In this document: positions 12,821 to 54,080 of the stretch, piece after piece
Layout of the letters: the number at the start of each line of letters is the position of its first letter
How positions within the stretch are numbered: position 1 is the stretch's first letter
IMG/VR virus record: IMGVR_UViG_3300028886_000034
Location: 1-54,080 of that record
Direction: 5' to 3' (one strand)
Source of the DNA: a virus
Lineage: Duplodnaviria; Heunggongvirae; Uroviricota; Caudoviricetes
Length of the DNA stretch: 54,080 bases
Position numbers and translations under genes: made by a program
Notes under the pieces: model-generated
Seen by the model: only the letters and a program-made list of their open reading frames with translations
What the model was told of the DNA's origin: nothing
The model's database searches: none

Positions 12821-13547
12821 AAACCTTCCTAATTGCGAATGAGAAACCTCTACTATCATAATCATATCTATAATCATGTGTATCATCACAATTGAACATC
12901 TCAATCAACTTCTCAAAAATATCCTTGATAGGAACTCCGTCATATTTAGCGTTTTCAAATCTACTTGCAGAATCATCTACTACTTTAGCGAAATCATCTC
13001 TAAATTTAATTTTTGAATAATATGCAAAATCAGGACTCTCCGAGGTCAAATGAACTAGCAACATCTTTTTAAATACCGGATATAACTTACGTGTAACTTG
13101 TTCGTGTTTATCCTCCAATGCAATATATTTGGCAAGATATTCTTTTAACCGGTCTTCAATAGCTTCACTAACTGAATCATTCGATACCGTCTCATGGTCT
13201 AGGTTATCCACATCAAAATCTTCATCAGATTCCAAAATAATCTCAATGCCATCAAGACTAATATTATACCAAATGCGCCAACCATCAATATCTACACAGC
13301 TAGTCGTCTTTTTAGATTTTAACGAAGCCTCAACACCCTCATACCGCCCAATAATATAAGTTATAAATTTTTCAAATACATCACCGGATAAAAACTTACT
13401 CAAAAACTTAAACTCTCTGCAGACATCAAACGGTCCATGAACCAAATCAAACCCACCAAATTCATCAGCTAGTGGCTCCAAAATGTCTTGGCCAATAATA
13501 ACGGTATACTTATAATTATACTTCTCAATTTTTTCTTTAGTAATCAT
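12819..13547 (-). CDS. hypothetical protein (242 aa)
   Basis: ORF track; SD GGGAGG. Confidence 0.75.
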   Translation of the reverse strand: MITKEKIEKYNYKYTVIIGQDILEPLADEFGGFDLVHGPFDVCREFKFLSKFLSGDVFEKFITYIIGRYEGVEASLKSKKTTSCVDIDGWRIWYNISLDGIEIILESDEDFDVDNLDHETVSNDSVSEAIEDRLKEYLAKYIALEDKHEQVTRKLYPVFKKMLLVHLTSESPDFAYYSKIKFRDDFAKVVDDSASRFENAKYDGVPIKDIFEKLIEMFNCDDTHDYRYDYDSRGFSFAIRKV

Positions 13548-13562
13548 AATATATTCCTCCCC

Positions 13563-14072
13563 TTATTGTACTTTATTTTCATTAACATAAGTTGCCAGAT
13601 AAATAATCAAGTGTGGCATAAACAAACTAACATCAAATGCTTGAACTTTTGCATAATGCACATAGGCATTAAATAGCATATGAAGAGCAAAACACACTAG
13701 AAAGGATTCTTTAGTATGATACTTAAAGTGAAGTCTTCCTGTAGACCAGTGCATCATTACAGCCATAAATTTTGCAATAATGAGAGTTACTTTCTGGTCT
13801 GTAGTAAGTACCCCCTCACCAATGCACAGAATCATAATAGCAATACTAATCAACTCCAGAACGCCAAACAGGTGTGCTTTAAAGTTTGTTTCAGAATGAT
13901 TATGCTTAAACCATTCTTCAAGATATGGAAATACTACAATGAACCCAATCAGATATGGAATAATGCTTTTAGTAGAACCTACTACATACAACATTACCCA
14001 CCAGACAAAACTACTGAAGAGAATAAATACAATCCATTTAAGAACTTCTTTTGTTTTATTCCACATATTCAT
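13563..14072 (-). CDS. multi-pass membrane protein
   Basis: Several hydrophobic segments; start moved to ATG 14072 after GGAGGAGG. Confidence 0.7.
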   Translation of the reverse strand: MNMWNKTKEVLKWIVFILFSSFVWWVMLYVVGSTKSIIPYLIGFIVVFPYLEEWFKHNHSETNFKAHLFGVLELISIAIMILCIGEGVLTTDQKVTLIIAKFMAVMMHWSTGRLHFKYHTKESFLVCFALHMLFNAYVHYAKVQAFDVSLFMPHLIIYLATYVNENKVQ

Positions 14073-46118: not shown

Positions 46119-46982
46119 TTAAACACCGCCAATCTCATATATAAACCTAACTCCATTATCTCTATAGAGTTTATAATAGGTATCCAATACTTTAATCTCT
46201 TTATCAGTATTCTTCAGTATTCCCTTTAATCTACCATTAATCATAATATCGTAGACTATAAACATCCATTTAGATACTTCTTCTTCACTATTAAGACTCT
46301 TTCTAAGTATCTTCTCAATCTTTGGACTTAAGGTACTACTATTACTATACTGATAAATGCATTTTAAGACATCCATCATAACTAGTTTAAATACTTTAGT
46401 CAATTTAGTAATGTTATAAATAGAATCATACTTAAACTGAAATGCTTTGTTAATATCATCTTCATGCAAATAGTACTCTTCGCTAAAGTAATTAATCATT
46501 GACCATATAGGATCATAAAGCAAATCATAGATACTTCCATAGTAGTAATTCTTTACACTATCTACAATCAGATTTAGTTCAGATACTTCTTTCAAATTCT
46601 CTAAAGAGATATTTTCATCCCATAATTTGTTCCAAATTTTCAGATGTTCCTCTATGTAATTTGAGTATCTAACTATATCTCCATAACCATAGGCATCTCC
46701 ATTATTACTAATTAAAGTAACCAGTGTATGACTCAAATTAAAATTCTTTTTACAATAGCTAATTATATGCTGTTCATAGTTTTCTTTTTTATCCTGCTTT
46801 ACTTTATAAATGTTATTTATCTGTTCTTGCTTATATAGTCTATCATAATTAAGCCTATGATCTGAATAAAGGTACTTAATCATATCCACCAACTCAGTAT
46901 CAAAGAACTTAATTAAGCTATCTGGAGTAAACTCATCATTAAAAGTATTTAGTCTGAGATAACTTGTGAGTAATTGAAGCAT
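46119..46982 (-). CDS. hypothetical protein (287 aa)
   Basis: ORF track. Confidence 0.75.
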   Translation of the reverse strand: MLQLLTSYLRLNTFNDEFTPDSLIKFFDTELVDMIKYLYSDHRLNYDRLYKQEQINNIYKVKQDKKENYEQHIISYCKKNFNLSHTLVTLISNNGDAYGYGDIVRYSNYIEEHLKIWNKLWDENISLENLKEVSELNLIVDSVKNYYYGSIYDLLYDPIWSMINYFSEEYYLHEDDINKAFQFKYDSIYNITKLTKVFKLVMMDVLKCIYQYSNSSTLSPKIEKILRKSLNSEEEVSKWMFIVYDIMINGRLKGILKNTDKEIKVLDTYYKLYRDNGVRFIYEIGGV

Positions 46983-48871
46983 GGCATACCTACCTTAATA
47001 TCATTCTTAACTACAGAACCCAAAGGAAGTACTTCATTATAAGGGCAATAATCACAAGAAGCCCTCTTATATGAAATAAGCTCAACAAGAGCATCTTTAT
47101 AGGTTTCGTAATCCCAACTACCAGCATACTTAACCATGCTATCAAAGTCAAAGATACCCTTAAGCATAATATCTTTCAGATGAAGTCTGTTTACAAGATT
47201 AATAAGAATTGCTCTTGCTAGTTCATACATAGGCTTATTAACAACTTCCATCATATACCCAGTAGTATTACTCAGCTTTACATCTTTAATATACTTGTTT
47301 TCTCCATACCACAGTACAAAATAAATATCAGTAAGTGCTGAAACTAAGCAAGATGCTTTCTTATTAAGTGTATCCTGATCAAAATCATCCAATATTGAAA
47401 AATCGAAATAAGCAAAGTTAAAATATACTTCATCTGAATTATCTTTTTCATAAGTATGATTCAAAGTAAGGTACTTATCAATAGTCCTAATTCCTCCAAT
47501 ACCTAGCTTATTCTTATTACCCAGAAGTATATTAGTAAGAATATTCATATAAGTATTTCCATACTCTTTTAGTTCAACATTATTAGCAAATAGATCTTGT
47601 CCTTCTACTGAACTCAACTGTAATGCTTTATAAGCAATAGTAATAATATCATTAAAATCTTCATTAGGATGATTCTCATTATACTCATATACCGATGCAA
47701 ACAAAGATGCAGAATAAATCAAAGATGTTGCTGGTGTACAAAGTGCTTCTTTATTAACCAACAGAGTAGGAATTGCTTTAGGATCCAGAATTCCCTTCTT
47801 AGCAATATTATACACTATTGATTTATTTTTAAGTCTTCTATCAACTTTACCAGTTTTAGCCAATACATTAAGTAGATCAAATTTAGTATCTGCATTGATA
47901 TACGTTTCTTTATAGTTTCTTATAACAGCATTATGAAATTTACTAACTTCCATCAATGGCTCTACCACTTCCATATCCTCCTTTGCTAAAATTTTCTTTA
48001 TGTCTACGCTATCAAAACTATCCTTCTTACCTACTTTAACCCCAGTAGTACTTTCAACTACTTCTACAATCTTATCATCAATCTCACTAGTATTATCTAC
48101 TTCAATACTATCAATATCAACCACATCTGTTTTCTTAATTTCTTTTTTAACTTTTTTAACAATATTGTTGTTATTTACTTCTTTCTTTAAATTACTAAAA
48201 TCAATCTCTGGAACTACACACATGGTATCATCAGGATGATACTCTATATCTGATTTAATACTCGGTTTTTCTAAATATCTTAAAATTGATTCAAGTAACA
48301 GATTATTCTTACTAATCTTATCAATAGTGTCTTCAATAACTTTGTATTGATTCTTAGACCTAAACATAAAACTATATACTGAGGCATTTGATGCAAAATT
48401 AGAAAAAAATAGAATCAATGACTTAATCTCTGCTTTAGTTAAATCAATACTAATACTATTCTTATCCTTAATAAAGTTAAACTGATATAATGGTATCCTT
48501 CTTTCATCTGTAACTGGTTTAATCTTCAATGTAATCTTATCAGTTAAAACCTTTTTAAAAATAACCTTATCTACGTACTTTGTAGTTACATACCAGCCAT
48601 CACTTATATCAGTTTTATTGAAATACTCCTTAATAGTACCCTCTTCTGTGTATACTGACATTATACTTGAAAACATAAGGGCATTACTGGGATTTAAAGA
48701 CATCGAATAATTCTTATTATCTGAAATAGATACCATAGGATACACATCTTCAAGATAATGTGTAGTATCATTATACTTAGCATATATTCCTATCTGTATG
48801 TTTAATCTGGATGTAACTCCACTAAAATTTAATGTAAGTTTTCCTTCTTCAATGTCATGCCATTCAAACAT
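46949..48871 (-). CDS. hypothetical protein (640 aa) with charged central linker
   Basis: Start moved to ATG 48871 after AAGGAGGG. Confidence 0.8.
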   Translation of the reverse strand: MFEWHDIEEGKLTLNFSGVTSRLNIQIGIYAKYNDTTHYLEDVYPMVSISDNKNYSMSLNPSNALMFSSIMSVYTEEGTIKEYFNKTDISDGWYVTTKYVDKVIFKKVLTDKITLKIKPVTDERRIPLYQFNFIKDKNSISIDLTKAEIKSLILFFSNFASNASVYSFMFRSKNQYKVIEDTIDKISKNNLLLESILRYLEKPSIKSDIEYHPDDTMCVVPEIDFSNLKKEVNNNNIVKKVKKEIKKTDVVDIDSIEVDNTSEIDDKIVEVVESTTGVKVGKKDSFDSVDIKKILAKEDMEVVEPLMEVSKFHNAVIRNYKETYINADTKFDLLNVLAKTGKVDRRLKNKSIVYNIAKKGILDPKAIPTLLVNKEALCTPATSLIYSASLFASVYEYNENHPNEDFNDIITIAYKALQLSSVEGQDLFANNVELKEYGNTYMNILTNILLGNKNKLGIGGIRTIDKYLTLNHTYEKDNSDEVYFNFAYFDFSILDDFDQDTLNKKASCLVSALTDIYFVLWYGENKYIKDVKLSNTTGYMMEVVNKPMYELARAILINLVNRLHLKDIMLKGIFDFDSMVKYAGSWDYETYKDALVELISYKRASCDYCPYNEVLPLGSVVKNDIKVGMPCFNYSQVISD

Positions 48872-48893
48872 TTTTATCCCTCCTTTAAGTGGG

Positions 48894-48922
48894 AGTATAC
48901 CAGACAAAAAGAAAAGTGTCAA
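48894..48922 (-). promoter_or_regulatory. sigma70-type promoter
   Basis: TTGACA-17 nt-TATACT with TG extension, upstream of 48871. Confidence 0.8.
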
Positions 48923-48987
48923 GACTGAACTAAAAGAAACCTACACCCTGATGAATTTACAAGGTATAGGCATTTAAGCCTTACATT

Positions 48988-49227
48988 TTACTCGTCCTCA
49001 AGCTCGTACCACGGGAGCCCCTCAAACACATTCTCAGGATACGGACCGCATACCTGAAAAATCTTCACCTGAGAGCCGTCAAGCACTTTACAAGTACGAT
49101 CCCAATCCGGATTCCCCACAAACATCAGGTAGGAAACTCGCTGAGCAGCCTCAAGGGGTGAAGTCGCGAGAACGGTGAACCGACGCAGCTCACCGTTCTT
49201 GTAATACACTACTGCCATTTTCTTCAT
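48988..49227 (-). CDS. small hypothetical protein, GC-rich cassette
   Basis: ORF track; SD AGGGAGG. Confidence 0.7.
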   Translation of the reverse strand: MKKMAVVYYKNGELRRFTVLATSPLEAAQRVSYLMFVGNPDWDRTCKVLDGSQVKIFQVCGPYPENVFEGLPWYELEDE

Positions 49228-49251
49228 ACCAATGCCTCCCTTTAGGACTGT

Positions 49252-49578
49252 TTAATTCCAGCCATCCAGCCAATGCCACCGCTTACCGCTATCAAGCTGA
49301 ATAGTGTCGATAGCAACCTCAACACCATTCAGCTTGAGCTCATCAAGCAACAGGGAAAAATCACGTTCGGTGTTTTCCCTTCCATCGAACTCAATGAGAA
49401 AGGCCTTATACAACCCATTCGGATTGTACACCTTCAAAACGGTGTTACCACTTTCGAAATTGTGACTAACTGTAAACCGAAATCCAGCAATCGCCACTTC
49501 GTTGGTTCCCTCAAAAGAGAGAACCTTCTCAAAACGACGAATACCATTTGCAAATACCACTTTCACGCTTTTAATCAT
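49252..49578 (-). CDS. small hypothetical protein, GC-rich cassette
   Basis: ORF track; SD AGGAGGT. Confidence 0.7.
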   Translation of the reverse strand: MIKSVKVVFANGIRRFEKVLSFEGTNEVAIAGFRFTVSHNFESGNTVLKVYNPNGLYKAFLIEFDGRENTERDFSLLLDELKLNGVEVAIDTIQLDSGKRWHWLDGWN

Positions 49579-49590
49579 GTATATTACCTC

Positions 49591-49938
49591 CTACTTATTC
49601 AAAAAATCCTTCAAGGTGATTGGCTCATCACCCGAAGCCCTCCGAATCCTCTCCGCTTCCCACTCTTTCAGGTACTTTTCCCCCTCCTCAGGAAGAAGTA
49701 CTCCTCCCTCCGCCCACTGAAGCATAGCTCGAACAGGCATGCCATGCCCCCGGTCAAAATCGTTAAGCACAACGAGGCCCAAATTACCATTCTGAAACTC
49801 GTAGTACCCTTCGATTTTAAACAACTGCTGCATCATCTGAAGCAGCTCATGACCCTTGAACTCTTCACCGTCAAGAATAATGCTATCGGAAGCAAGGAAC
49901 ATTTTTTTCAAAAATTTTTTAAGTTTTGTCATATCCAT
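49591..49938 (-). CDS. hypothetical protein, first gene left of the origin-like region, GC-rich
   Basis: ORF track; SD GGGAGT. Confidence 0.7.
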   Translation of the reverse strand: MDMTKLKKFLKKMFLASDSIILDGEEFKGHELLQMMQQLFKIEGYYEFQNGNLGLVVLNDFDRGHGMPVRAMLQWAEGGVLLPEEGEKYLKEWEAERIRRASGDEPITLKDFLNK

Positions 49939-50066
49939 TATATCTACTCCCTTGTATGAAAGAATATTTATAAAATCATCCTACAATAGTAGGTTATTTT
50001 AATAACCCTGTCTTTAATAAAAGACAAAGGACTCTTATATAATATATATGCAAATTTCATCTCAAG

Positions 50067-50457
50067 TTATCCACATACTTATCCACATATCCACAACCGC
50101 CTCAAACAGTTTTTATATTTAACTATCTATAATTTAAACTTATTTAATGTATACTAATATCTTTAAACTAGTTTTAATCTAAAAATTACAGATGCATACA
50201 ATTCAGTCAAAAGTTATCCACAATGTAAACTATAACGCTGCATTCACAGAATATTCAGGCAATATTACGCTACCTCAGTATTCTCAATGGCTTAAGCCAT
50301 GTTTTATAGTATATGATATAAAATATTATATTTTATGACCCATGCAACCTAAAAATAGGTTATCCACAGAGTTATCCACAGAGTTATCCACCGTTTATGT
50401 TTAGTAACAAAAACGCAACCATCGTAGCACATAACTTTCAAAAGAGAGTTATCCACC
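50067..50457 (+). promoter_or_regulatory. cluster of 8 co-oriented DnaA boxes; putative replication origin or DnaA-titrating locus
   Basis: Perfect TTATCCACA at 50067, 50079, 50214, 50360, 50372; one-mismatch copies at 50087, 50384, 50449; AT-rich stretch about 50105-50190 between groups; non-coding. Confidence 0.85.
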
Positions 50458-50499
50458 GTTTTACCATTTCCCTACTACTATAAAAAAATATATAATAAT

Positions 50500-50545
50500 A
50501 GAGAGTAAGGAGTCGTCTTTTCAAGACGACGACTCCTTACTCTCT
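50500..50545. repeat. 18-bp perfect inverted repeat (hairpin/cruciform)
   Basis: AGAGAGTAAGGAGTCGTC / GACGACTCCTTACTCTCT with a 10-nt loop. Confidence 0.9.
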
Positions 50546-50852
50546 TACTGAAAGTTAAACTATTATTTTTTTTTTTTCAAGTTAAAACCTAATAAATAAT
50601 TACCAAGGACTTAAATTTTACCCTCTTGACAAAATGAAAGAGTTATGTAAAATGATTACTGAAAGCTAAATTTTTATTAAGCAAAACAAAATTAAATTCT
50701 GATAAAAGAACAAGCTTCAGCAAAGACTTTTAAAATCAAATATAAAATTTTATTCAAAAGGTCAAAAATCTGATTTGGGGGTAAACCCACTGAATTGACC
50801 CAGCTGAAAAAATTTAATTCTTATAATTTTCTTCGAAAAATTAATTTTATAC

Positions 50853-50881
50853 TTGACAAAATATTTTAGTTATGCTTTAAT
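50853..50881 (+). promoter_or_regulatory. sigma70-type promoter for the rightward genes
   Basis: TTGACA-17 nt-TTTAAT with TG extension. Confidence 0.65.
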
Positions 50882-50915
50882 ATAACCAGAAACTAAGATT
50901 TTAAAAATAAGGAGT

Positions 50916-51272
50916 GTGTATTTACACATGCAAGAATACAAGCTTTTATTCGGTTATGCCCAAGGGACAGATGAGCATTTAGGCACGGTCATAGATGAAA
51001 CTTCAGAATTTTATATTATGAAAAAGCTGAAGACATTTATGAAACAGCCTACACCTCAAGGGTTAGCAGCTGCAATTGTCCCGTTTATGTTAAGCAGCGC
51101 ATTGAGTAGTACAGATGCACCAGTTAAAATTTATAAAAATCAAATTGGCTGGTCTATAGATGAAAAAGATATTGATCAGGGTATCTTAAATGAGTATATC
51201 CAAGCTACCACAGGTTTAACAGTAGCTACATCCTCCGCAGCTACCAAATCTGGGTTATTAGTTGCGCATTAA
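50916..51272 (+). CDS. hypothetical protein (possibly Sm/SH3-like fold)
   Basis: ORF track; SD AAGGAG; start GTG 50916 or ATG 50928. Confidence 0.65.
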   Translation: MYLHMQEYKLLFGYAQGTDEHLGTVIDETSEFYIMKKLKTFMKQPTPQGLAAAIVPFMLSSALSSTDAPVKIYKNQIGWSIDEKDIDQGILNEYIQATTGLTVATSSAATKSGLLVAH

Positions 51273-51527
51273 ATGAATATTGAAAGCCTTCCTGCTTATA
51301 ATAATATAAACTTATTTGATACAGATTTAAGTCAGCTTAATATAAAGGACCCTGATACTTTATACTGTAGGATAAAATCAAATTTACAGTCATTAATTGA
51401 TTTATACAGTGTATATGACCCATATAATCCAGATATAAATAAGTTAAGTAATCTTTTAGATAAGATTTATGAATTACATGAAAACTGTAATTTAGATGTT
51501 ATGGAGGATTACAGTGATGGATACTAA
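51273..51527 (+). CDS. small acidic hypothetical protein
   Basis: ORF track. Confidence 0.6.
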   Translation: MNIESLPAYNNINLFDTDLSQLNIKDPDTLYCRIKSNLQSLIDLYSVYDPYNPDINKLSNLLDKIYELHENCNLDVMEDYSDGY

Positions 51528-52929
51528 AAGATCCAGTTTTTTATTAGTACATTTATTCAATACAGATCTTAGTTCTAATAAATCTACTTTTAAAACTTTA
51601 TTTAGTTCAATAGTTAATACTGGTAATAACGTTAATCTGGTTGTTAATAGCTTAAACAAATTAGGTAATGATATTATCAAGATTAAAGGTGATATGTATA
51701 ATCTTATTAACAGATCATCGAATAACAGTTTCTTTAGGAATACCGTTTTAATTGGAGCTAATAATACTAACGAATCCAATTTAGTTAATAAAGATAATAT
51801 TTTATATCTATTAGTAAGTGGCATTCCTAAACAAAAAATTGCCTCTGATCGATTTGAAGAAGTTGATATAAAGTCTTTAGATCAATTAGATATGTACATT
51901 CAGGCTCATAGAAATTCTGATCAATTTAAAGAAGTTGATATAAAAACTTTATTAGATCAATTGGATATGTACATTCAAGCTCATAGAAATAATATTTTAA
52001 TGGGCTTAGAAGAAGTACTGAAGAATACTACTGGTAACTTTTCAATAGTTTTATATGAAGCACCTGCCAATAACATTTATCTATTTAACAGTAATAGAAC
52101 TAGTTATGTTCATATAGATGACCAATCTATATTCATTAGTTCCGATAATATACCATCTACAGAGTATCAATTAAATAGCTCTTCTAATATTGAAAACAGG
52201 ACAGTTTATACTATTAAGATCGATGGTAGATTTGCTTTTAAACAAATCTATATTGATGATCCAATTAGTATTAATAATAAGTATGTTTTAACTTGTAATT
52301 ATGATGGCAGTATAGAATCTTTTATTTTACCATATTTAGTTAATGAACTTTATCATCCGATCAAGATTAATATCAATGACTATAATTGTATAGGTGAAGA
52401 TGAATTTACATTATTAACGGAATCATTCAATATAGATACTTTTAATATTGTAAATGCACCATTATTAAAAGAGCACTTATTAAACCCTCTTTTTCATCAG
52501 TTTAAAGTAAACTATATTGACTATACTAACGATTTAGATGAGATTGATTTATATACTCATTTAACCAGATTTAATAAAGGTTCTACCTATACCCCAGTAT
52601 TTAAGAATCTTCAATCTGAAGAGATATTGCTATTAGGGTTATATTTGAATATACCCTTTATGAAGTTTAAATCTAAATGTGAGCACTTTCATAGAGATAC
52701 GTTTGGCAATTATACTCTTTGTGGTGAATGTGATGAATGTAAAGAGCTGTATACTAGATTTGCTAAGTTAGGTTTCACATTAGAGAATATGCCTATTAGA
52801 TTTAATAATCAAACTGAATTAGATAAGCTTAAAGTAAAAGGTATCAAAAATAATGCCTTATTAGATAATGAAAAATATTTAGCTCTTAGGAGTAAGTTAG
52901 TTGAGGTTTTCCCATATGACAATCGTTAA
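51517..52929 (+). CDS. degenerate class II glutamine amidotransferase + QueC-like fusion protein
   Basis: N-part GNFSIVLY...IYLF...IFISSD is Ntn-GATase-like; C-part TPVF..L..EEILLLGLYLNIPF...C...CGECDEC...F.KLG...P..F is QueC-like; the SGGxDS PP-loop reads YDGSIES; no N-terminal Cys; start ATG 51517 after GGAGG. Confidence 0.7.
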   Translation: MDTKRSSFLLVHLFNTDLSSNKSTFKTLFSSIVNTGNNVNLVVNSLNKLGNDIIKIKGDMYNLINRSSNNSFFRNTVLIGANNTNESNLVNKDNILYLLVSGIPKQKIASDRFEEVDIKSLDQLDMYIQAHRNSDQFKEVDIKTLLDQLDMYIQAHRNNILMGLEEVLKNTTGNFSIVLYEAPANNIYLFNSNRTSYVHIDDQSIFISSDNIPSTEYQLNSSSNIENRTVYTIKIDGRFAFKQIYIDDPISINNKYVLTCNYDGSIESFILPYLVNELYHPIKININDYNCIGEDEFTLLTESFNIDTFNIVNAPLLKEHLLNPLFHQFKVNYIDYTNDLDEIDLYTHLTRFNKGSTYTPVFKNLQSEEILLLGLYLNIPFMKFKSKCEHFHRDTFGNYTLCGECDECKELYTRFAKLGFTLENMPIRFNNQTELDKLKVKGIKNNALLDNEKYLALRSKLVEVFPYDNR

Positions 52930-53564: not shown

Positions 53565-53571
53565 TAGGTAC

Positions 53572-53599
53572 TTGACAAAAAATTTTACTTGTGTATAAT
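53572..53599 (+). promoter_or_regulatory. consensus sigma70 promoter
   Basis: TTGACA-16 nt-TATAAT with TG extension. Confidence 0.8.
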
Positions 53600-53655
53600 C
53601 ATATTTAGAAAGAGGACAGTCCTTTCGATCTTTCATAGCCCTCCTTCATAAATAT

Positions 53656-53928: not shown

Positions 53929-54063
53929 ATGGTTATGGATAATGGTTTTAAGAAGTTGTTTAGGAAAATTGAAATCAATAGTAAGAGGCCTACAGTAATT
54001 CAAGTTTATCCTAAGATGAGAACCTTTAAAGACTTTGAAAAAGAAGTACTTGACAAGAAATAA
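53929..54063 (+). CDS. 44-aa basic hypothetical protein
   Basis: Hand-translated (MVMDNGFKKLFRKIE...); SD AGGAGG. Confidence 0.6.
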   Translation: MVMDNGFKKLFRKIEINSKRPTVIQVYPKMRTFKDFEKEVLDKK

Positions 54064-54077
54064 ATCTTGTGTATAAT
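54050..54077 (+). promoter_or_regulatory. consensus sigma70 promoter, near-copy of 53572-53599
   Basis: TACTTGACA-16 nt-TATAATCAT, sharing CTTGTGTATAATCAT with the upstream copy. Confidence 0.8.
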
Positions 54078-54080
54078 CAT

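Follow-up and report, generated by a model that had tools for sequence, protein, structure and literature searches.

A DnaA-box array in a cattle-gut jumbo phage is predicted to be a replication origin laid out like the bacterial basal unwinding system

Why does a jumbo phage that encodes a replication machinery of its own keep an array of binding sites for the bacterial initiator DnaA? The question is raised by a gene-free gap in the window, that is, in the whole stretch of DNA analysed here, which comprises the first 54,080 bases of the 284,119-bp virus record IMGVR_UViG_3300028886_000034. This genome is rated complete, has identical 107-bp ends and a GC content of 31.9%, and the sequencing runs holding its DNA identify the source of the phage as the cattle gut or rumen. 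The lists of open reading frames (ORFs) bore out an earlier note on this DNA, which had described about 1 kb of non-coding sequence at the main switch in gene direction: a leftward ORF ending at 49938 and a rightward gene starting at 50928 enclose 989 bp (Table 1). The same gap was found in close strains from other samples, with 100% identity in the loci labelled L269 and L270 and 93% in L271. Two explanations of the array had been offered, an origin opened by the host's or the phage's own DnaA, and a sink that sequesters DnaA. Our analysis indicates that the gap is probably an origin of bidirectional replication, dependent on the DnaA of the host and built as a copy of the basal unwinding system (BUS) of bacterial chromosomal origins (oriC).

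All eight boxes of the array were recovered in a recount, and all of them read on the + strand. The perfect boxes, TTATCCACA (n=5), start at 50067, 50079, 50214, 50360 and 50372, and the boxes with one mismatch start at 50087 (ATATCCACA) and at 50384 and 50449 (both TTATCCACC). The 12-bp periodicity noticed earlier in two groups of boxes matches the start-to-start spacing at 50067/50079 and at 50360/50372/50384, and the box at 50087 overlaps its neighbour at a distance of 8 bp. Elsewhere, only isolated boxes had been noticed. The window outside the gap contains a single further perfect box, at 13204, and the resulting 6 boxes were reached in none of 100 shuffled windows (mean 0.74 perfect boxes); of the 11 perfect boxes counted over all 284,119 bp of the genome, 5 lie inside one 314-bp stretch of the array.

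At the right end of the array we found a module, located at 50449-50545 and missed in the earlier reading, whose layout is that of a BUS. The box at 50449 is followed by a 14-nt spacer, by CTACTACTA, by 19 nt of A/T and by an 18-bp hairpin. Under the published search rules, a BUS has a DnaA box with no more than two mismatches, a spacer 0-16 nt long and three or more DnaA-trios with a central A (PMC8287927). In the phage, the proximal box has no more than two mismatches and is oriented toward the trios, and the spacer, which in such systems usually ends in a GC cluster, measures 14 nt in the window and 12 nt in its relatives. At least three tandem central-A trios (3'-GAT-5') stand on the strand on which the box reads TGTGGATAA, and directly beyond the trios an A/T tract is present in the window and in all relatives. 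The orientation of the trios agrees with that of bacterial dnaA-dnaN loci and with that of C. difficile oriC2, in which the trio run 5'-CACCTACTACTATTACTACTATGA-3' comes after three DnaA boxes and a GC cluster (PMC7561715). The 9-mer CTACTACTA occurs 8 times genome-wide, and the module at 50449 is the sole case in the genome in which it lies within 0-16 nt after a box with at most two mismatches.

To see how far the module extends beyond this genome, relatives found by homologue search were used, in which the 657-aa flanking protein is 47-98% identical and the 114-aa protein encoded by the first gene right of the gap is 60-100% identical. Five diverged lineages were compared (L127, L133, L134-136, L138/L137 and L268), and between these and the window the 114-aa protein is 61-82% identical. 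A cluster of DnaA boxes precedes the 114-aa gene in every relative with enough upstream DNA, and the order of elements is the same in all five lineages: TTATCCAC(T/A)TATCCACA, GCCC or TCCC, three to five trios, A/T, hairpin and TTACTGAAAG. At the proximal site the relatives carry the tandem box TTATCCAC(T/A)TATCCACA, and its second box together with GCCC/TCCC fills the 12-nt spacer. Unbroken runs of three or four CTA are found in L127, L133 and L138, and interrupted runs in L134 and L268 (CTA CTA ATA CTA; CTA TTA CTA ATA); the trio variants besides CTA are TTA, ATA and GTA. An A/T tract of about 20-25 nt and then a hairpin of 18-22 bp follow, and two to four distal boxes lie 45-60 bp upstream, with a period of 11 bp as against 12 bp in the window. 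The more distant relative L130, with 48% identity, had no box cluster within 10 kb, but its synteny is different; a search of IMG/VR for related loci with the 657-aa and 477-aa flanking proteins gave no match. Metagenome contigs of many relatives end in or beside the module (L131, L132, L137, L138, L272-L274), likely because box repeats common to other genomes break assemblies at this place.

The comparison also separated conserved from incidental parts of the array. AT-rich tracts (80-88% AT) do lie between the box groups, at about 50100-50180 and 50300-50335, as the earlier note had stated, but a role of such DNA as unwinding element was rejected. Box set A resembles a second proximal module, yet it lacks both a clean run of trios and conservation; unwinding is likely to take place at 50472-50499, in the trios and the pure A/T tract. 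Set A as a whole (50067-50095) is restricted to the sub-lineage of the window and is absent or rearranged in L127, L133 and L134. The 14-bp palindrome described among the boxes is present at 50287-50300 and is probably incidental, because it is not conserved in the relatives. The motif ACTATAACGCTGCA ... GAATATTCA (50229-50257) is kept, and it is possibly the site of an accessory protein.

The surroundings of the module differ among the lineages. In L127 and L134 a pair of tail-fibre genes is inserted between the module and the leftward replication genes, and the module is located between co-oriented genes, 4 kb from the switch in gene direction. The module therefore is not a mere by-product of divergent promoters, and it travels with the rightward early operon and not with the gene-direction switch.

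Sequence comparisons with bacteria further link the module to cellular origins. A 27-nt core, TTATCCACWTATCCACANCCCCTACTA, present in four of the relative lineages, is letter-identical in at least 120 bacterial species. Among the matches listed, it is carried by Lachnospiraceae, Roseburia, Lachnospira, Faecalimonas and Eubacterium (Clostridia) and by Brochothrix, as well as by Thermus/Meiothermus, Chloroflexota, Poribacteria and Bdellovibrionales, and thus by members of many phyla, and in nearly all of these listed bacterial copies more trios and an A/T tract follow. Six bacterial loci were tested for their neighbours. Both flanking ORFs were found in four of them (Brochothrix, a Lachnospiraceae metagenome-assembled genome, Lachnospira and Thermus), and in all four the core has dnaA on one side and dnaN on the other, the latter being the gene to which it points; in the loci of Poribacteria and Treponema one flanking ORF each was examined, which was neither dnaA nor dnaN. 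In this position, between dnaA and dnaN, the core is the unwinding module of the chromosomal origin. Among viruses, the exact 27-nt core is absent from 2.9 million IMG/VR contigs, and a looser 20-nt core was found in 8 of them.

Two side observations concern related arrangements elsewhere. Origins of Ktedonobacteraceae, Chloroflexia and Poribacteria (L154, L163, L188, L192 and others) carry a mirror-image module (TAGTAG ... GGGGCTGTGGATA) after the A/T tract, which suggests that these bacterial loci are twin convergent unwinding modules. Three DnaA boxes at an exact 12-bp period occur in at least 117 IMG/VR contigs (L009-L125), many of which are 4-7 kb long and thus of microvirus size, and the GenBank microvirus bajarodmic virus 162 (PQ006258, 3777-3808) matches the triple box of the window at 32 of 32 positions. 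After such triple arrays in other viral contigs, trios were found in 3 of 126 cases, which is no enrichment.

The position of the module was then set against the strand asymmetry of the genome. When summed in 2-kb bins, cumulative GC skew is lowest over the whole genome at 50 kb and highest at 206 kb. Since skew follows gene strand strongly, per-gene skew was regressed on gene strand and replication arm, and the arm effect remained after strand correction (t ~10, both at all positions and at third codon positions). A whole-genome skew analysis had been proposed as a check on the origin, and it came out in its favour. In a grid search, origins at 50-58 kb combined with termini at 184-188 kb fitted best. 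The origin indicated by the skew thus lies no more than about 3 kb from the module, and no other candidate element is present in that interval; at this resolution of about 3 kb the module lies at the switch of replication-linked strand asymmetry. The fibre genes that intervene in L127 and L134 have a GC skew at third codon positions (GC3 skew) near 0, like head-on genes. This agrees with the module as origin but does not decide the matter, because the three genes to its other side are near zero as well.

The hairpin is specific to the phage and is selected for pairing. Folded as single-stranded DNA, a 116-nt stretch around it reaches -22.7 kcal/mol (z = -7.9). Its letters vary among lineages and the pairing is kept throughout: 8 of the 18 pairs are changed on both sides across 5 lineages, a number that none of 500 shuffles reached, and L268 contributes one more stem variant. 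The few cells of the alignment that seem unpaired are due to gap placement, and the arms of L133 are perfectly complementary when read directly. Seven hairpin variants were read, and their stem pairs are Watson-Crick without exception; this fits a role at the DNA level, as a cruciform or as hairpins on both strands. No Rfam family was found in 48900-51100, apart from spurious miRNA matches to the hairpin, and a scan of IMG/VR with the hairpin pattern gave no match. Among 119 bacterial loci, long perfect stems are rare at this position; the ones seen consist of A/T palindromes or of trio runs in mirror image. Hairpins that are long, contain GC and come after the A/T tract characterise this phage lineage and, to a smaller extent, some of the 8 viral contigs with the looser core. 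As a side observation, the TTACTGAAAG motif is part of a longer repeat, TTACTGAAAG(N)TAAA, seen after the hairpin (50545-50567) and again after promoter P1 (50656-50678), with CTGAAAG kept at both places in the relatives.

The gene content of the phage bears on which protein would open such an origin. Six-frame searches of the genome found no ATPase or DNA-binding domain of DnaA (Bac_DnaA, Bac_DnaA_C) and no Pol III alpha, and the phage's own dnaA, one of the initiators proposed earlier, thus drops out; the initiator would therefore be that of the host. The plasmid-like mode of replication suggested at the same time is not supported either, because the search for rep and partition genes, which the earlier note had proposed together with that for dnaA, found no Rep3, ParA (AAA_31) or ParB in six frames, nor a tyrosine integrase. 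Among direct-repeat families only the boxes and short motifs were seen, with no other iterons. The phage encodes a DnaB-family helicase (563 aa, at 81 kb), a clamp-loader subunit, a flap endonuclease, a RecA/UvsX-like protein, an Mre11-like phosphoesterase, an anaerobic ribonucleotide reductase, and GyrB-like and topoisomerase IV A-like proteins. It looks like a virulent phage that has a T4-style set of replication and recombination genes and no visible initiator. The host DnaA is the most likely initiator, because a phage without an initiator gene carries a conserved oriC module at the flip of the skew.

From the anatomy of the module, its conservation, its identity with chromosomal origin cores and its place at the skew switch, we infer the following course of initiation, modelled on the BUS mechanism (PMC6669920, PMC8287927, PMC10721633). 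DnaA-ATP of the host would occupy the co-oriented high-affinity boxes, and the distal arrays, phased at 11-12 bp, would raise the local concentration of DnaA. Starting at the proximal box, DnaA would oligomerise along the TAG trios on the - strand (50472-50480) and so melt the pure A/T tract next to them (50481-50499). The conserved 18-bp hairpin would bound the bubble and may mark the entry of helicase or primase of the phage, which is speculation. A replicative helicase, either that of the host or the DnaB-type helicase of the phage, would then be loaded, although no loader was identified, and forks would go both ways round the genome, in circular or concatemeric form, until they reach a terminus near 184-206 kb. 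Recombination may drive later rounds, because the phage has RecA/UvsX-like and Mre11-like genes.

Several points weigh against a DnaA-dependent origin at this place. The replisome that the phage encodes is of the T4 kind, and phages so equipped are known to begin replication from R-loops or by recombination and not with DnaA. Six-frame searches found neither a DnaC/IstB-type nor a DnaD/DnaB_2-type helicase loader, which leaves the hand-over from DnaA to the helicase unexplained. Three CTA repeats may match by chance in one genome, and for this reason the weight of the argument rests on conservation. In the sub-lineage of the window the second proximal box has decayed and the spacer measures 14 nt instead of the canonical 12; this variant is stable within the sub-lineage, as the close strains L269-L271 carry it. 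In a finer skew profile the best fit is at 53 kb, although nothing near that point resembles an origin, and the fit at 50-51 kb is a little poorer (delta RSS/sigma2 ~5, RSS being the residual sum of squares); the offset comes from the near-zero GC3 skew of the three genes just right of the module.

A more elaborate scheme keeps the DnaA-dependent start and adds to it that the host takes only the first step of replication, that the hairpin hands the DNA to the helicase or primase of the phage, and that the boxes also drain DnaA and so stop initiation in the host. Taken as a whole, we regard this scheme as rather doubtful.

The other explanation offered at the outset, a sink that titrates or inactivates host DnaA in the manner of datA, halting initiation on the host chromosome while phage genomes build up to hundreds of copies, and leaves phage replication to start elsewhere or otherwise, appears improbable. 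Eight co-oriented high-affinity boxes would suit a sink, multi-copy phage DNA would multiply the sites, and DnaA may be dispensable for a phage that brings a helicase, a clamp loader and recombination genes of its own. A sink needs boxes only, however. A datA-like element has boxes and no unwinding module, and here the boxes are joined to trios and an A/T tract; the spacer, the trios in register, the A/T tract and the hairpin would be left unexplained, as would the identity with dnaA-dnaN cores and the coincidence with the skew switch. The trios, A/T tract, conservation, core identity and skew minimum favour the host-initiator-dependent origin, and titration of DnaA would be a side effect at most.

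We give little credence to the idea that the same origin is opened by an unrecognised phage protein that reads the boxes. Most proteins near the gap have no family match and could hide such a reader, but no signal of Bac_DnaA or Bac_DnaA_C appeared in six frames, and trios are read specifically by domain III of DnaA (PMC10721633). The letter identity of the core with cellular origins also argues for the cellular protein.

Likewise unlikely is a purely transcriptional role, in which DnaA bound at the array would regulate or insulate the strong early promoters P1 and P2, or else the leftward units, and expression of the early genes would thereby be coupled to the DnaA status of the host. DnaA is known to act as a transcription factor and the module always lies about 170 bp upstream of the conserved P1, but none of the boxes overlaps a promoter, regulation by DnaA is not known to involve trios or an A/T unwinding tract, and the skew switch would be unexplained; control of the promoters is possible as an added function of the origin. 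That the region is a membrane tether or a T5-like injection-stop signal, or else a functionless captured piece of a host origin, is very improbable: T5-like phages do keep 8 DnaA boxes, in pairs 3 bp apart, in a non-coding region that is not an origin (bioRxiv 10.1101/866236), but here the boxes are co-oriented, without inverted repeats, 50 kb from the ends of the record and joined to trios and an A/T tract, and inert cargo is ruled out because the element is conserved down to 61% protein identity with compensatory changes in the hairpin.

Table 1 Features of the gene-free gap and of the first gene to its right (positions in the window)
Feature	Position	Strand	Remarks
Gene-free gap	49939-50927		989 bp, no credible ORF (ORF lists); all array elements inside
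Distal box set A	50067-50095	+	Two perfect boxes 12 bp apart and overlapping ATATCCACA; then ACCGCC and AT-rich tract
Single perfect DnaA box	50214-50222	+	Box scan
Conserved motif ACTATAACGCTGCA ... GAATATTCA	50229-50257		Upstream of distal boxes; kept in alignment of window, L127 and L133
14-bp palindrome ATGGCTTAAGCCAT	50287-50300		Not conserved in relatives
Distal triple array	50360-50392	+	Two perfect boxes and one TTATCCACC, 12-bp period
Proximal DnaA box TTATCCACC (8/9)	50449-50457	+	Points toward trios
Spacer, 14 nt ending CC	50458-50471	+	Inside 0-16 nt BUS range (PMC8287927)
Three DnaA-trios	50472-50480	-	+ strand CTACTACTA = - strand 5'-TAGTAGTAG-3' (3'-GAT-5' x3)
Pure A/T tract, 19/19 nt	50481-50499		Proposed DNA unwinding element
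Perfect 18-bp inverted repeat, 10-nt loop	50500-50545		Arms 50500-50517 and 50528-50545; directly flanks A/T tract
TTACTGAAAG motif after hairpin	50545-50554	+	Conserved; second copy after P1 (50656-50665)
Promoter P1	50626-50653	+	TTGACA, 16 nt, TAAAAT; conserved in all relatives
Promoter P2	50853-50881	+	TTGACA, 17 nt, TTTAAT with upstream TG; conserved in all relatives
114-aa gene, first of early operon	50928-51272	+	Linked to module in every relative; no family match

To the right of the module lie the two sigma-70-type promoters P1 and P2. Metatranscriptome contigs from three studies start at 50681, 50687 and 50711 near P1 and at 50864 and 50885 near P2, and DNA contigs continue through both places, which weakly suggests that the early operon starts at P1 and P2. 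No contig of the three studies covers about 50010-50680, contigs being unable to show that a transcript is absent, and no promoter could be assigned inside the module (50449-50545). Between P1 and P2, at 50760-50800, AAGGTCAAAAA ... TGACC is invariant in all six aligned lineages and could be a protein site or a leader element; the RNA structure of the P1-P2 region offered only an invariant 5-bp stem without covariation and no Rfam match.

Farther right, an apparent second box cluster at 53.6-54.1 kb was rejected: its one-mismatch 'boxes' at 53590 and 54068 belong to strong early promoters that are repeated there, form their extended -10 elements (TGTGTATAAT) and are not DnaA sites. These near-consensus promoters, GTACTTGACAA ... 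CTTGTGTATAATCAT, are located at 53568-53610 and 54046-54080 (L139:13168-13210 and 13646-13688) and precede small genes and a tRNA cluster right of the predicted origin; one RNA contig at this promoter region has a depth of about 1760. For one of the seven tRNAs in this cluster, at L139:15507-15600 (genome 55907-56000), ARAGORN gives the anticodon CUA, that of an amber suppressor, and the label Pyl. Recoding of TAG was considered and rejected, as read-through of TAG gives no better ORF coverage and 32 predicted genes end in TAG.

The early genes were also considered as initiator genes and rejected. The structure model of the 114-aa protein (pLDDT 64) has weak Sm/LSm-like matches (E ~0.03), and the 657-aa protein has no match. 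The 477-aa early protein (51496-52929), which has no Pfam or PHROG match, resembles viral fusions of glutamine amidotransferase and QueC by language-model features and an Atlas fold (0.93, 166 shared features). This is a lead only, by which the protein might be of the Gat-QueC type and act in 7-deazaguanine modification of DNA; if G residues of the phage were modified, the binding of DnaA to the boxes could be affected.

On the left side, the gap is adjoined by three small leftward ORFs (79, 108 and 115 aa; 48988-49938) without family matches, which form an island of 44.6% GC in contrast with the 31% GC genome. The island ORFs are present in close strains, and L127, L133 and L134 have other genes there; RNA contigs over the island have a depth of 2-7 versus about 150 on its flanks. 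The 657-aa ORF beyond it (46949-48922) probably starts at the ATG at 48871, because its homologues have 605-640 aa and its Atlas form 640 aa. RNA contigs of the leftward replication operon end at 48869-48926, and its promoter would therefore lie about 1.5 kb left of the box array.

Comparisons with known systems help to place the predicted origin. The DnaA-assisted origins of plasmids and phage-plasmids (P1 oriR, F oriS, RK2 oriV, pSC101) likewise recruit host DnaA through boxes beside AT-rich DNA. They need a Rep initiator and iterons, and usually partition genes, and to our knowledge trios do not occur in them. In the phage genome Rep3_N, AAA_31 ParA, ParB_N and iterons other than the boxes were all missing from the search results. 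The R-loop origins oriF and oriG of T4 and the origin of lambda also combine sites for an initiator or promoter with an A/T unwinding tract, which in lambda is flanked by a palindrome, and replisome genes of the T4 type adjoin the module, which makes a later switch to recombination-dependent replication likely. In T4 the primer is an RNA made from a middle promoter, and lambda relies on its O protein; we know of no use of DnaA-trios at either origin.

The closest system is the BUS, as described for B. subtilis incC (boxes 6/7 together with DnaA-trios) and C. difficile oriC2 (Richardson 2016/2019; Pelliciari 2021, PMC8287927; PMC7561715). Common to both are co-oriented boxes, a short spacer with a GC end, at least three trios on the opposite strand, an A/T tract and distal boxes upstream. 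Unlike a bacterial BUS, that of the phage has neither dnaA nor a dnaN-type neighbour, is followed by a GC-containing hairpin of 18-22 bp and TTACTGAAAG, and in the window copy has a single proximal box and a 14-nt spacer. The dnaA/dnaN neighbourhood of a chromosomal oriC is replaced by early genes without an assigned function, and in its predicted role the element works like an oriC but is not a chromosomal oriC locus. The iss region of T5-like phages also has about 8 conserved boxes, with pairs at 12 bp start-to-start, in a large non-coding region of a lytic phage; the T5 boxes, unlike those here, lie in inverted repeats within the terminal repeat, have been argued not to be an origin, and show neither trios nor a skew switch (bioRxiv 10.1101/866236). 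No box pairs in inverted repeats of a terminal repeat were found in the present phage.

Skew patterns running from an origin to a terminus have been described in jumbo phages before. About 30% of huge phages have skew that indicates bidirectional replication (Al-Shayeb 2020, PMC7162821), and for phage G an 'oriC' with DnaA boxes, spacer and trio was predicted by software (Ori-Finder; PMC12484599). Those studies contain no conserved element, comparison of relatives or skew corrected for gene strand; the present element is conserved, and its limits are given to the nucleotide. In the literature we found no report of a conserved phage origin of the BUS type that is backed by relatives. New here are its occurrence in a jumbo phage with its own replisome, the identity with cellular cores, the strand-corrected mapping of the skew and the conserved hairpin.

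As far as we know, the origins of jumbo phages are almost entirely unmapped, and phages with a T4-type replisome are thought not to need DnaA. The module provides a testable, nucleotide-defined candidate origin for a clade of jumbo phages of the cattle gut. If the prediction is true, replication of these phages depends on a host protein that can be depleted or mutated. One 27-nt core is found in the origins of at least 120 species, and phages can therefore mimic it without tailoring it to a host. The conserved hairpin points to a step that has no counterpart in bacterial origins, namely the hand-over from DnaA to the helicase of the phage, and if the boxes also titrate DnaA, the element would couple the replication of the phage to the shut-off of its host.

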